64,000 nt of DNA. Source: an uncultured delta proteobacterium. GTDB taxonomy: Bacteria > Desulfobacterota > Desulfobacteria > Desulfobacterales > UBA2156. Positions 45,040 through 47,819 of this stretch are shown piece by piece. The notes below the pieces were generated by a model. It worked only from the letters and a program-made list of their open reading frames with translations, was not told the DNA's origin and made no database searches. A program made the translations under genes and the position numbers. How positions within the stretch are numbered: position 1 is the first letter of the stretch; each line of letters begins with the position of its first letter. The stretch spans positions 192,001 through 256,000 of the forward strand of contig CAVTQK010000015.1 of assembly GCA_963736855.1 (NCBI GenBank). Direction: 5' to 3'.

Positions 45040-46275
45040 TCACCCATCGGCTTTTCTGGAGGCCATCCCTGATGAAGGCATTTTTTTTGTTTGTGTTCCA
45101 GAATCGTAAAGGGATTTCAGCACCCCGTCGAAATAGTCGGGGAGGTAGCGATCCCAGAGCCGGATGGGAAGAGCGGTCAGTTCGGTTTTCTCGGATTCCG
45201 CAAAGGCAAACAGGTACTCCATGAGAAATTCGATGTTGCAGGCCAGCTGCCCCTTGTATTGTTGATCGAGGCGCTGACGCAGGATCCGTTCCTCATGCAT
45301 GGATTGTCCGATTTCGCTTTCCAGCATCTCCTGATAGTTGCACACAATGACTTCCAGCTCCACGCTTTCCTCGGCCTCTAGTACGAAGTCACGGAAAAGT
45401 CGTCGGACCTCATCGGGACCCATCCCCCATTTTTGCATGGAATCGAAAGTCTGTCGTTTCATGGGGTTCGAAAGGAGTTCTTCTTTATCCGGTTGATACC
45501 GAATAATCAAGTTGATGGCGTTGTATAATCCGCTGTGGTCCTCCCTTTCGAAAAGATCGCAGCAGTGCGTCTCCGAGATACGATCAAAGAAATGCTGACG
45601 GTGTGAATCTTCAACGATGACTTTTACGCCGGCGACGTCCCGGATGATCATCCCGTGGTTTTCTTCGATGGGGCGTCCGTTTTTCAGATCGTCAAGCAGG
45701 CGGCCTTCGGCTTTGAGGAACTCCTCGATCATTTTCGACTGCGGGGTAATCAGGAGTTCCACGGGGATACCCAAATGGAGAGCCCGGTCCCGGGCCAACG
45801 CATCGGCGCGTTTTCGGATGTCGATATACATCCGGTCGATGATACGGCGGGCGGCCTTTTCCGCCAGACGTCGGGAACGCTTGATACGGTTGGAACCAAT
45901 ATAGCGGAAGCCCCCGGAATGTTCGACAAAATAGAGTATGCTCTGGAACGGGGTCTCCCGGTAGTACACTCCTGGATCGATACGATATGCCGAGATCATC
46001 GCATCGATTCTCGGATTATGATAGGGGAGGTTTTCGACGATGACGTCTTTGAGATCGGCCTTGCTGGTCGCTTTCCGCATTTTAAGGGGGACGTCGTGGA
46101 GCAGACCAAAGATTTTTTCGGAGAAAGCCGGCAGGTAGCTCTGGATAAAAGCGCTGTTGAAGTGTATGAGTCGGTTGAGAATCTCGGCGTCGGAGGGGTT
46201 CGGAGTATTATACATCCATCGGGTGATAAGCTGTTTCAAGGCATCCCGATGCAAAATGCCGCTAATAGTAATCAT
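45040..46275 (-). CDS. Conserved hypothetical protein with divergent RelA/SpoT synthetase (nucleotidyltransferase) motifs
   Basis: RIKRSRRLAEK, RDVAGVKVI, SGLYNAINL, ELEVIV, ESEIGQSMH, in canonical order. Confidence 0.55.
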   Translation of the reverse strand: MITISGILHRDALKQLITRWMYNTPNPSDAEILNRLIHFNSAFIQSYLPAFSEKIFGLLHDVPLKMRKATSKADLKDVIVENLPYHNPRIDAMISAYRIDPGVYYRETPFQSILYFVEHSGGFRYIGSNRIKRSRRLAEKAARRIIDRMYIDIRKRADALARDRALHLGIPVELLITPQSKMIEEFLKAEGRLLDDLKNGRPIEENHGMIIRDVAGVKVIVEDSHRQHFFDRISETHCCDLFEREDHSGLYNAINLIIRYQPDKEELLSNPMKRQTFDSMQKWGMGPDEVRRLFRDFVLEAEESVELEVIVCNYQEMLESEIGQSMHEERILRQRLDQQYKGQLACNIEFLMEYLFAFAESEKTELTALPIRLWDRYLPDYFDGVLKSLYDSGTQTKKMPSSGMASRKADG

Positions 46276-46322
46276 ATTACCGCAAGATATCCGAAAAGTG
46301 CTTATATGCCAAGATCAATTTT

Positions 46323-46479
46323 GATGAAATCGTAAAAACTCAAACCTAAATTGAGCGATTTTCGAATTTACCGCAGATGCAAGGCGCGGAAATCCTGAGG
46401 AATGAGGCGTACATATGGTTACGCCGCAATGACGAAGGATGCAGTGCAACGCAGCAGATGGACTTTTTAGGAGCGAGTC
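46323..46479. mobile_element. MITE-like element, inverted copy
   Basis: Reverse complement of copies 1 and 2 over most of its length; flanks AATTTT / ACTTTT (5 of 6 match). Confidence 0.8.
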
Positions 46480-46552: not shown

Positions 46553-47819
46553 TTAACGCTGAAGTGCCTTTTCAGGGGTGGTGATCAGAATCTCCAGATC
46601 TTCTCCTTGCATTTTTAAAGGTATCACCGCGATATTGTTTTGCTTATCCAAAAAACAGCTTCTTTTACCCTTGTCGGGTAAAAATGTGGCATGAGCAAAA
46701 CGGGGAGAGCCTGGATCAGCGTCCATGATCCGAACTGTACCGGTACCTTCCATAGCCTCCGGATCGACCCTGAGGATGAGAAGCCCAGCATCGGAAATCA
46801 AACGGTCAGAGCCAATGGGTTGACGGTTTTCCAAGAGGTAATAGATACCTCCTTGGAGAGGAATTTTCACCACCAAAGGATTGCCTCCCTTGGCTAACGG
46901 TACCAAGATCACTCGCTTTTCTTCGCCCGGTTTTACATGCACAACCTGATCATCGGTAATCCAACCCAACCGGATTCTGGTAAAGGAAGACAACCCGGGC
47001 GGGGGCGCATCCCTTTTAATCAGGTGTGAGGACATGACATCCCATGGACCCATGTAAGTAGTGCAATCTTCCCATTTCATTTTCGCTGAAGCGTCAGCCT
47101 GACGCTCGAAGTCATAAAGTCAGGGAACCAGGCGTTGGTTGTTGTACACCCCCCCCAGGGCATGAAAGAAGTCATGGGCAAACATACCTATGTGGGAATT
47201 TTCGGTGCCTACAAATATCCCCCCTGAAAATTCCTTGCCGCCCTTTGAGCGAAGGGTAAGATATTCCGGGTTTCTCCGCACACCCGTCAGCATACCGGGA
47301 TTGGCACAGTAGCAGGGCATGCCGTAACCCTTGTCAGAGACCGTTTGGACGCCGGGTACAATGAGCATGTGTTGATAAGCGGAGAAGTCCACCTCTTTTT
47401 CAAGACCGGTCATGGCGTCCCCGATGAGTTTTCTCACCCTATTGCGGTCCACCTTAAAATTGTCTTGAGCTGACCCGATACTCGGAGACAGGGTCGGGCA
47501 TCAAGACCCAGCCTGTCATATGGGCATCGATCCGAGCCTTGCCATACGATTGATCACGGACGTATTCGTTGAGCCGTGTTACTGCCTTGTACTTGATTTG
47601 ATCCAGGGAAAGATTCGGTTTTACGTCAGGAAACCGGACAGGAACCACGAGGAGGCGGATTTCTCCTTGTGCCTTCTGGGATTGAGGACCCAATAAGTCT
47701 GTAACTCGCGGTTGGCGATATTGGATTTCTGCACTTTCCTTCTGCTTCTGGATAGAACCGGTCCCTGTCTGGCAGGCGCATAAAAAAAACATCATAAAAA
47801 GCCATGTCCAATGTTTCAT
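46553..47819 (-). CDS. M6 (immune inhibitor A)-like metzincin lipoprotein; candidate selenoprotein (in-frame UGA 47120-47122) with one +1 frameshift near 47465
   Basis: Three ORF-track pieces join into about 421 aa: lipobox LCAC, VVPVRFPD, YVRDQSYG, AHDFFHALGG...VP*LYD, Met-turn GPWDVMS, LGWI, YYLLENRQ, GLLI. Confidence 0.75.

Follow-up and report, generated by a model that had tools for sequence, protein, structure and literature searches.

The window (the whole 64,000-nucleotide stretch analysed) carries on its minus strand a gene for a predicted metzincin-like selenoprotein. The assembly presents it in two parts. The 5' part (47454..47819, from the list of open reading frames) encodes a putative signal peptide and the N-terminal portion of an M6-like catalytic domain, with a weak TIGR03296 match (E 0.0023). 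The 3' part (46553..47452), read through an in-frame UGA, gives 299 amino acids with the metal site, the Met-turn and a C-terminal beta domain (TIGR03296, E 4e-12). Both parts form one continuous frame in the relatives L007 and L013. From near 47452, the minus-strand frame reads ...HDFFHALGGVYNNQRLVP (ending AHDFFHALGGVYNNQRLVP), then TGA (47122-47120), then LYDFERQADASAKMKWEDCTTYMGPWDVMSSH..., and it meets no other stop until 46553. This is the open frame by which the initial annotation had joined the open reading frame at 47120-47452 to that at 46553-47080. The UGA corresponds to residue 233 of the intact relative of 421 amino acids, at the third-ligand position. On the genomic evidence, it is almost certainly decoded as selenocysteine (Sec) by SelB, with a hairpin 20 nt downstream.

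Between the two parts, one extra base shifts the frame (47463..47465, minus strand), a probable consensus error of the assembly. The base is missing in all four aligned relatives. It is also missing in the contigs from 4/4 runs, which are contigs of related strains. Two runs lack the base at 47463 (AGC) and two lack the base at 47465 (GAC). The AGAC of the window holds both variants, as expected from a consensus of two alleles. Likewise, L007 (same genus, 91% identical) and L013 (421 aa) encode an unbroken protein. The 40 run-contig differences listed include none that touches the TGA. A sequencing error had been suspected at this +1 frameshift; the shift is real in the assembly and absent from relatives, and we regard an assembly error as very probable. 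Programmed frameshifting at 47464 was rejected, since no relative carries the shift. The second tuf copy of this assembly (G000:C6:75000-76420) points the same way: it is 98.8% identical to the first and differs from it by two one-base indels, which suggests that the assembly contains such errors.

An LCAC lipobox-like motif (47783-47772, minus strand) ends the hydrophobic putative signal peptide. A loose lipobox pattern was found in 22/60 Sec rows; 17 of the 60 have no readable N-terminus, which leaves 22/43 readable. The other readable Sec-type N-termini show signal-like stretches. So, the lipid anchor proposed from LCAC has its motif in the copy of the window, but it is not a family-wide feature. 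The product is predicted from its N-terminus to be an exported protein of about 420-470 amino acids.

The gene follows a GAF histidine kinase in the window, and not generally elsewhere. Across 83 loci, no partner family occurs in more than 6 neighbourhoods and none points to a substrate. A promoter and terminator scan gave chance-level results. Directly downstream lies a 411-aa open reading frame (45040-46275, minus strand) with no Pfam or NCBIfam match. The window also contains, at 46314-46472, a MITE-like repeat of ~155 nt, whose ends are imperfectly inverted (TTGATGAAATCGTAAAAA ... TTTTTACGAAGCCATCAA in the majority of copies). It has 54 near-full copies among 91 genome matches, and the copy at 46314-46472 has a degenerate right end.

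Relatives and the residue at the UGA site

We gathered 133 loci with the protein or its alignment. The motif pattern fits 127 of them, 101 with TGA and 26 with Cys. The six misses are two TGA genes (L026, L135), one Cys gene (L081), the canonical HExxH member L058, and L011 and L012, which have no readable motif. Collapsing loci that share at least 95% identity over 300 nt left 83 non-redundant loci, the copy of the window included. At the site, TGA occurs in 66 and Cys in 17, a ratio biased by searches seeded with a Sec-type gene. Among the 120 protein matches listed, 119 have Cys at this position, and the remaining one is a C-terminal fragment. The homologue check proposed at the outset thus returns TGA or Cys in close homologues, and no Trp was seen.

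In an even sample of the phylum (401 genomes), the family is present in 16. Apart from the genome studied here, these comprise nine with Cys, four with HDxxH and Asp, one with TGA and one with canonical HExxH. In the order, 301 genomes gave six matches. The relatives are MAGs of Desulfobacteraceae, Desulfatiglandaceae, Desulfocapsaceae, Syntrophaceae, Syntrophobacteraceae and unclassified Deltaproteobacteria. Their hosts are uncultured anaerobic bacteria of sediment and groundwater. Only the distant canonical L058 comes from a cultured isolate among 46 loci.

We built a FastTree phylogeny of 124 rows from an alignment that excluded the trait site and the ten residues after it. A single clade of 97 rows (SH-like 99) contains every one of the 66 Sec rows, interspersed with 31 Cys rows. 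The whole tree, with a root that is not clean, needs 18 changes among U, C and D, counted without direction. Thirteen close pairs of Sec genes, picked by hand, give dN/dS values of 0.02-0.19 upstream of the UGA and 0.07-0.36 downstream of it. Purifying selection acts on the coding region 3' of the UGA. The family is conserved, and the gene decay that the initial annotation had named as a refutation is not what we observe.

Three loci (L089, L117, L128) have tandem copies or fragments of the family, adjoining a 296-312-aa protein that has no Pfam match and recurs in 6/83 loci. Two Cys-type members, L149 and L153, contain a TAA within the match, distant from the ligand site.

SECIS hairpin and selenocysteine machinery

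Downstream of the UGA, the sequence AGCGTCA-GGC-TGACGCT (47106-47090, minus strand) forms a bacterial SECIS hairpin. The published model, in the legend to Fig. 2 of PMC13188914, has a loop of 3-9 nt, with G in its first two positions, at a distance of 16-37 nt from the UGA. It also sets a stem of 4-16 bp and an MFE of at most -7.5. The hairpin of the window lies within these limits, with a GGC loop of 3 nt (47099-47097) 20 nt from the UGA, a 7-bp stem and -10.6 kcal/mol. Both the 7-bp stem and the apical loop that begins with G, about 20 nt 3' of the UGA, are as first described.

The folding energy alone is not significant (z = -1.11; 30/200 shuffles equally stable). Likewise, a loose SECIS pattern scanned over the whole genome selected 339 TGAs and discriminates poorly. 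It is conservation that lifts the hairpin above chance, as only TGA genes show fixed synonymous sites in its core. The exact core CGTCAG(G/T)CTGAC occurs in 66/66 TGA genes and in 1/17 Cys genes, and all six core pairs form in 66/66 and 0/17, respectively. In every one of the 66 TGA genes, the codons Arg(+6) CGT, Gln(+7) CAG and Asp(+9) GAC are fixed, wobble bases included, while the codons flanking the core vary freely. The sole variable core base is the second loop position (G in 25 and U in 41 TGA genes), and the published model permits both. The stem is invariant in TGA genes, so there are no compensatory changes and covariation cannot be scored. These counts are not independent, given that the TGA genes are mutually related. 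The single Cys gene that carries this core, L049, is surrounded by Sec genes in the phylogeny, and it has a mismatch immediately beyond the core. This suggests a recent change from Sec to Cys.

Eleven other UGA genes of the genome, chosen by eye, are followed by short hairpins of a similar kind, and several of these hairpins have GGN triloops. By their motifs, some of them listed in PMC13188914 Table 1, we take them to be FdhA, SelD, HdrA, MvhD, hydrogenase, peroxiredoxin and others.

The genome has the machinery whose presence was to be confirmed. We found selB (381 bits; cut-off 242), selA (617 bits; cut-off 268) and selD, itself with an in-frame TGA. The tRNA-Sec(TCA), which is selC, and a tRNA-Trp(CCA) are both present. 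Of the other genomes holding the TGA form, 36/39 have selA. Of the remaining three, two have selB, and the third lacks both genes and gave no more than a sub-threshold tRNA-Sec match. Nevertheless, the machinery does not discriminate between forms, because genomes with the Cys and Asp forms carry selA too (54/57 entries, three of which are repeats).

Fold and metal-site position

An AlphaFold2 model was made for L013 minus its signal peptide, from 95 sequences (pLDDT 92, pTM 0.90). The best structural matches are metzincins. Compared with InhA2, the model gives Z 26.0 and rmsd 2.6 A over 331/406 aligned residues with 22% identity (Foldseek E 3.6e-13), and the next match has Z 9.9. The predicted model contains the metzincin catalytic-domain fold, with a five-stranded sheet and the active-site helix. 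Modelling thus supports an M6/thuringilysin metzincin fold for this protein.

In a PDB sequence search, a narrow family profile gave 0 matches and a broad profile retrieved InhA2. The nearest ESM Atlas clusters are annotated 'hypothetical protein', and PF05547 is found on 10-11% of their members. The M6 homology is significant (E 5.7e-21), yet the TIGR03296 score of 75.7 bits is below the cut-off of 110.8. PF05547 scores 19.4 against a cut-off of 22 bits.

Metzincins are characterized, in the account of PMC12237041, by the motif HExxHxxG/NxxH/D and a Met-turn, and the third ligand of thuringilysins is Asp. In some metzincin families, the ligand is followed two residues later by a Tyr switch (PMC12237041; for M6, PMC4815223). 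In the window, HDFFH (47162..47176, minus strand) aligns to the InhA2 motif. It presents two predicted His metal ligands and an Asp instead of the general-base Glu. This replacement, already read from the window, extends to 95/95 aligned rows. The His, Asp and His of HDxxH, the Tyr(+2) and the Met-turn are all invariant in the 95 rows.

At the third-ligand position, the His or Asp that metzincins have three residues past the Gly is missing. Sec or Cys comes instead after an inserted loop, VYNNQRLV with an invariant Arg (47126..47149, minus strand), which separates the helix Gly from the third-ligand position. Compared with InhA2, the insertion has 9 residues. The motif is therefore HDxxHxxGG-x8-P[U/C/D]LY and not HExxHxxGxxD. 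When InhA2 is aligned with a profile of 30 mixed members, the Asp of its LPDEYD, which follows a gap in the InhA2 row, falls in the U/C/D column. Moreover, the relatives form a graded series: HExxH-GLPD; HExxH with the insertion and Asp (P0146, P0152, P0173, P0180, P0182); HDxxH with the insertion and Asp (P0123, P0125, P0126, P0130, P0141, P0157; L145-L148); HDxxH with the insertion and Cys; and finally Sec. The series and the profile alignment place Sec/Cys in the third-ligand slot by homology. So, the position first proposed for Sec stands as homologous to the third-ligand Asp of M6, but the HExxHxxGxxD spacing does not. The Glu-to-Asp change is not tied to Sec, because sister subfamilies combine HDxxH with an Asp ligand.

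The Met-turn expected after the third ligand is found at GPWDVMSSH (47024..47050, minus strand; Met 47035-47033). Its invariant Met aligns with the W-S-L-M turn of InhA2. Three residues past this Met, parsed HDxxH rows have a His in 64/64 U, 124/130 C and 7/7 D cases. Five diverged members (P0112, P0122, P0137, P0159, P0169) have lost the His and the motif Asp together, and P0112 keeps the Cys. They are likely inactive paralogues, judging from these residues. Their joint loss of His and Asp indicates that the intact motif is selected in the remaining members.

Candidate functions and related systems

From positional homology, the two His of HDxxH and the selenolate (thiolate in the Cys forms) probably hold one divalent metal. 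The reading we favour, tentatively and with close to even chances, is a metal-dependent hydrolase of narrow specificity, acting on amides through a His-His-Sec site. It is preferred because Asp, Cys and Sec share one slot in one subfamily, while the acid, the Tyr and the Met-turn are invariant. A ligand role fits this sharing, as Asp is incapable of thiol redox. SelB would read the UGA as Sec by means of the downstream hairpin, and the resulting His-His-Sec site would hold Zn or Fe above the Met-turn. The metal could then activate the hydrolysis of a specific amide or peptide bond, with the motif Asp serving as a shorter general base. The cleft may be reshaped by the inserted loop and by the additional His that follows the Met-turn. 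Sec may tune the metal or shield the ligand from irreversible oxidation. The enzyme would be a metzincin with a His2-chalcogen ligand set of the peptide deformylase type, unlike a broad degradative protease.

Several observations weigh against this hydrolase. The canonical general-base Glu is missing, and zincin Glu-to-Asp mutants usually lose most of their activity. In most selenoproteins, Sec serves redox chemistry (PMC13188914), and the conserved CxC could pair with Sec instead. P0112 retains its Cys despite the loss of both His. In the 83 loci, no conserved neighbour indicates a substrate, and the copy in the window is frameshifted in the assembly.

A second reading, which we consider less likely than the hydrolase, is a redox or sulfur-group selenoenzyme on a protease scaffold. 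Sec (or Cys) would cycle with the nearby CxC, or else with Fe, Cu or Ni as a redox metal, acting on an extracytoplasmic peptide, thiol or metalloid substrate. The repeated interchange of Sec and Cys in the 97-row clade (66 U, 31 C) resembles that of redox selenoproteins, and the loss of the general-base Glu fits as well. The CxC motif (CYC, 47306..47314, minus strand) is part of a strand predicted in the catalytic domain (E154-158 of the model). Over the 95 rows, its first Cys is invariant and its second at least 90% conserved. It is present in 61/66 Sec and 111/133 Cys rows, some misses being pattern failures. However, the second Cys also occurs in 3/7 parsed Asp-type rows, so CxC is not tied to Sec/Cys. 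Against redox chemistry, the same slot is held by Asp in HDxxH relatives with the same insertion. Similarly doubtful is a metzincin with a mononuclear His-His-Sec site and an Asp base doing redox, sulfur or metalloid chemistry, and not ordinary proteolysis, outside the Desulfobacterota cytoplasm. If this non-proteolytic reading were true, it would mean a protease-fold selenoenzyme and a new metzincin ligand class.

Somewhat less probable again is a non-catalytic pseudo-protease whose His-His-Sec site binds either a soft metal or a peptide ligand, for a role as scavenger, chaperone or sensor. It agrees with the Glu-to-Asp change at the catalytic position and with the members without His ligands. 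Substituted, presumably inactive zincins are common (PMC3650047), and NCBIfam has an inactivated M6-like family, NF052323, although the match is weak. Nevertheless, the strict acid, Tyr(+2), Met-turn and post-turn His exceed what metal storage needs.

It is very improbable that the UGA is a true stop, in a split or decaying pseudogene or between two proteins with a restart at ATG 47080. The frameshift in the window's copy and the ATG, 13 codons past the UGA, agree with a stop. So do six database representatives that stop right before the site (five at Pro, one at Ser), but such ends are also expected where gene callers take the TGA of a Sec gene as a stop. However, TGA occupies one codon in 66/83 non-redundant loci with frames open on both sides, dN/dS past it is 0.07-0.36, and no genes but those with TGA have the hairpin fixed. 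At the restart position, many Sec genes lack a Met. In practice, gene callers miss or shorten the Sec forms, as the six representatives ending at the UGA illustrate. Finally, nothing was found in favour of an alternative genetic code in which UGA is Trp or another residue, and the Cys at the site in 119 of the 120 protein matches listed and the tRNA-Sec(TCA) next to tRNA-Trp(CCA) in the genome leave it a negligible chance.

The favoured His-His-Sec hydrolase shares several features with M6 peptidases and thuringilysins (InhA2, PDB 4YU5/4YU6; TIGR03296, PF05547). These are the fold, the two helix His, the Met-turn, the Tyr two residues after the third ligand and the export signal. Unlike them, the family has HDxxH and not HExxH, Sec/Cys and not Asp as third ligand, the loop insertion, the extra CxC and the post-turn His. 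It also differs in its length of about 420-470 aa and in its sub-cut-off TIGR03296/PF05547 scores. As two motif features fail, it should not be classed as a canonical M6 peptidase. In peptide deformylase, two His ligate the metal. That enzyme also resembles the family in holding a hydrolase metal with Cys and an HExxH-type motif, as outlined in PMC3101196. However, it has another fold, with a Cys supplied by a separate motif further upstream and with the catalytic Glu retained, and it is outside the selenoprotein catalogue. The T9SS-dependent M6-like inactivated metalloprotease NF052323 likewise has an altered M6-like active site, with a weak match over 61 residues. It differs in its model of 1043 positions, scores 23 bits against a cut-off of 600, and has no Sec described.

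Like catalogued bacterial selenoproteins, the family has an in-frame UGA, a downstream SECIS with a G[G/U] loop, Cys orthologues and a selenoprotein-rich host lineage. Unlike them, its Sec lies outside a CxxU/UxxC motif, and the site is homologous to Asp and not only to Cys. Known selenoproteins are mostly thiol-type oxidoreductases or have Sec on Mo/W/Ni centres. Sec replaces Cys as a direct metal ligand in [NiFeSe] hydrogenase and Sec formate dehydrogenase, according to PMC10779653 and PMC13188914, and in the hydrogenase it comes with better oxygen tolerance (PMC10779653). These enzymes differ in having Ni-Fe or Mo/W redox cofactors and unrelated folds, with no mononuclear hydrolase-fold site.

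The 119 prokaryotic selenoprotein families in Table 1 of PMC13188914 include no peptidase or zincin fold. The available text on BSepDB (111 families, PMC13326102) and on deep-Sep mentions no such family. In NCBIfam of June 2026, 30/30 members gave sub-cut-off M6 matches only, and no selenoprotein model. Our literature search found no selenoprotein M6/metzincin and no HDXXH metalloprotease, with Deng et al. 2026 and Haft and Tolstoy 2025 outside the comparison. The former (Cell Rep 45:116760) reportedly contains unvalidated new selenoprotein candidates from groundwater MAGs, and the latter (mSystems 10:e0141724) is said to cover selenoprotein families that appear in the 2026 table. This is a real selenoprotein family, apparently absent from the catalogues, and by homology a new ligand variant on the metzincin fold. 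It would extend the metzincin ligand set beyond His and Asp. With its repeated Sec-Cys switches, the family is a natural Asp/Cys/Sec series at one metal-ligand position of one fold. The old question of what selenium contributes beyond sulfur at a metal site can thus be put to a direct test on natural proteins.

Elsewhere in the genome, more genes that combine an in-frame UGA with a hairpin were noted at G000:C15:78490, C15:361831, C6:143231 and C8:98949, with the motifs GCYPU, SMYUPFC and, in two of them, NTEUGH. By these motifs, they are apparently candidate members of known selenoprotein families.
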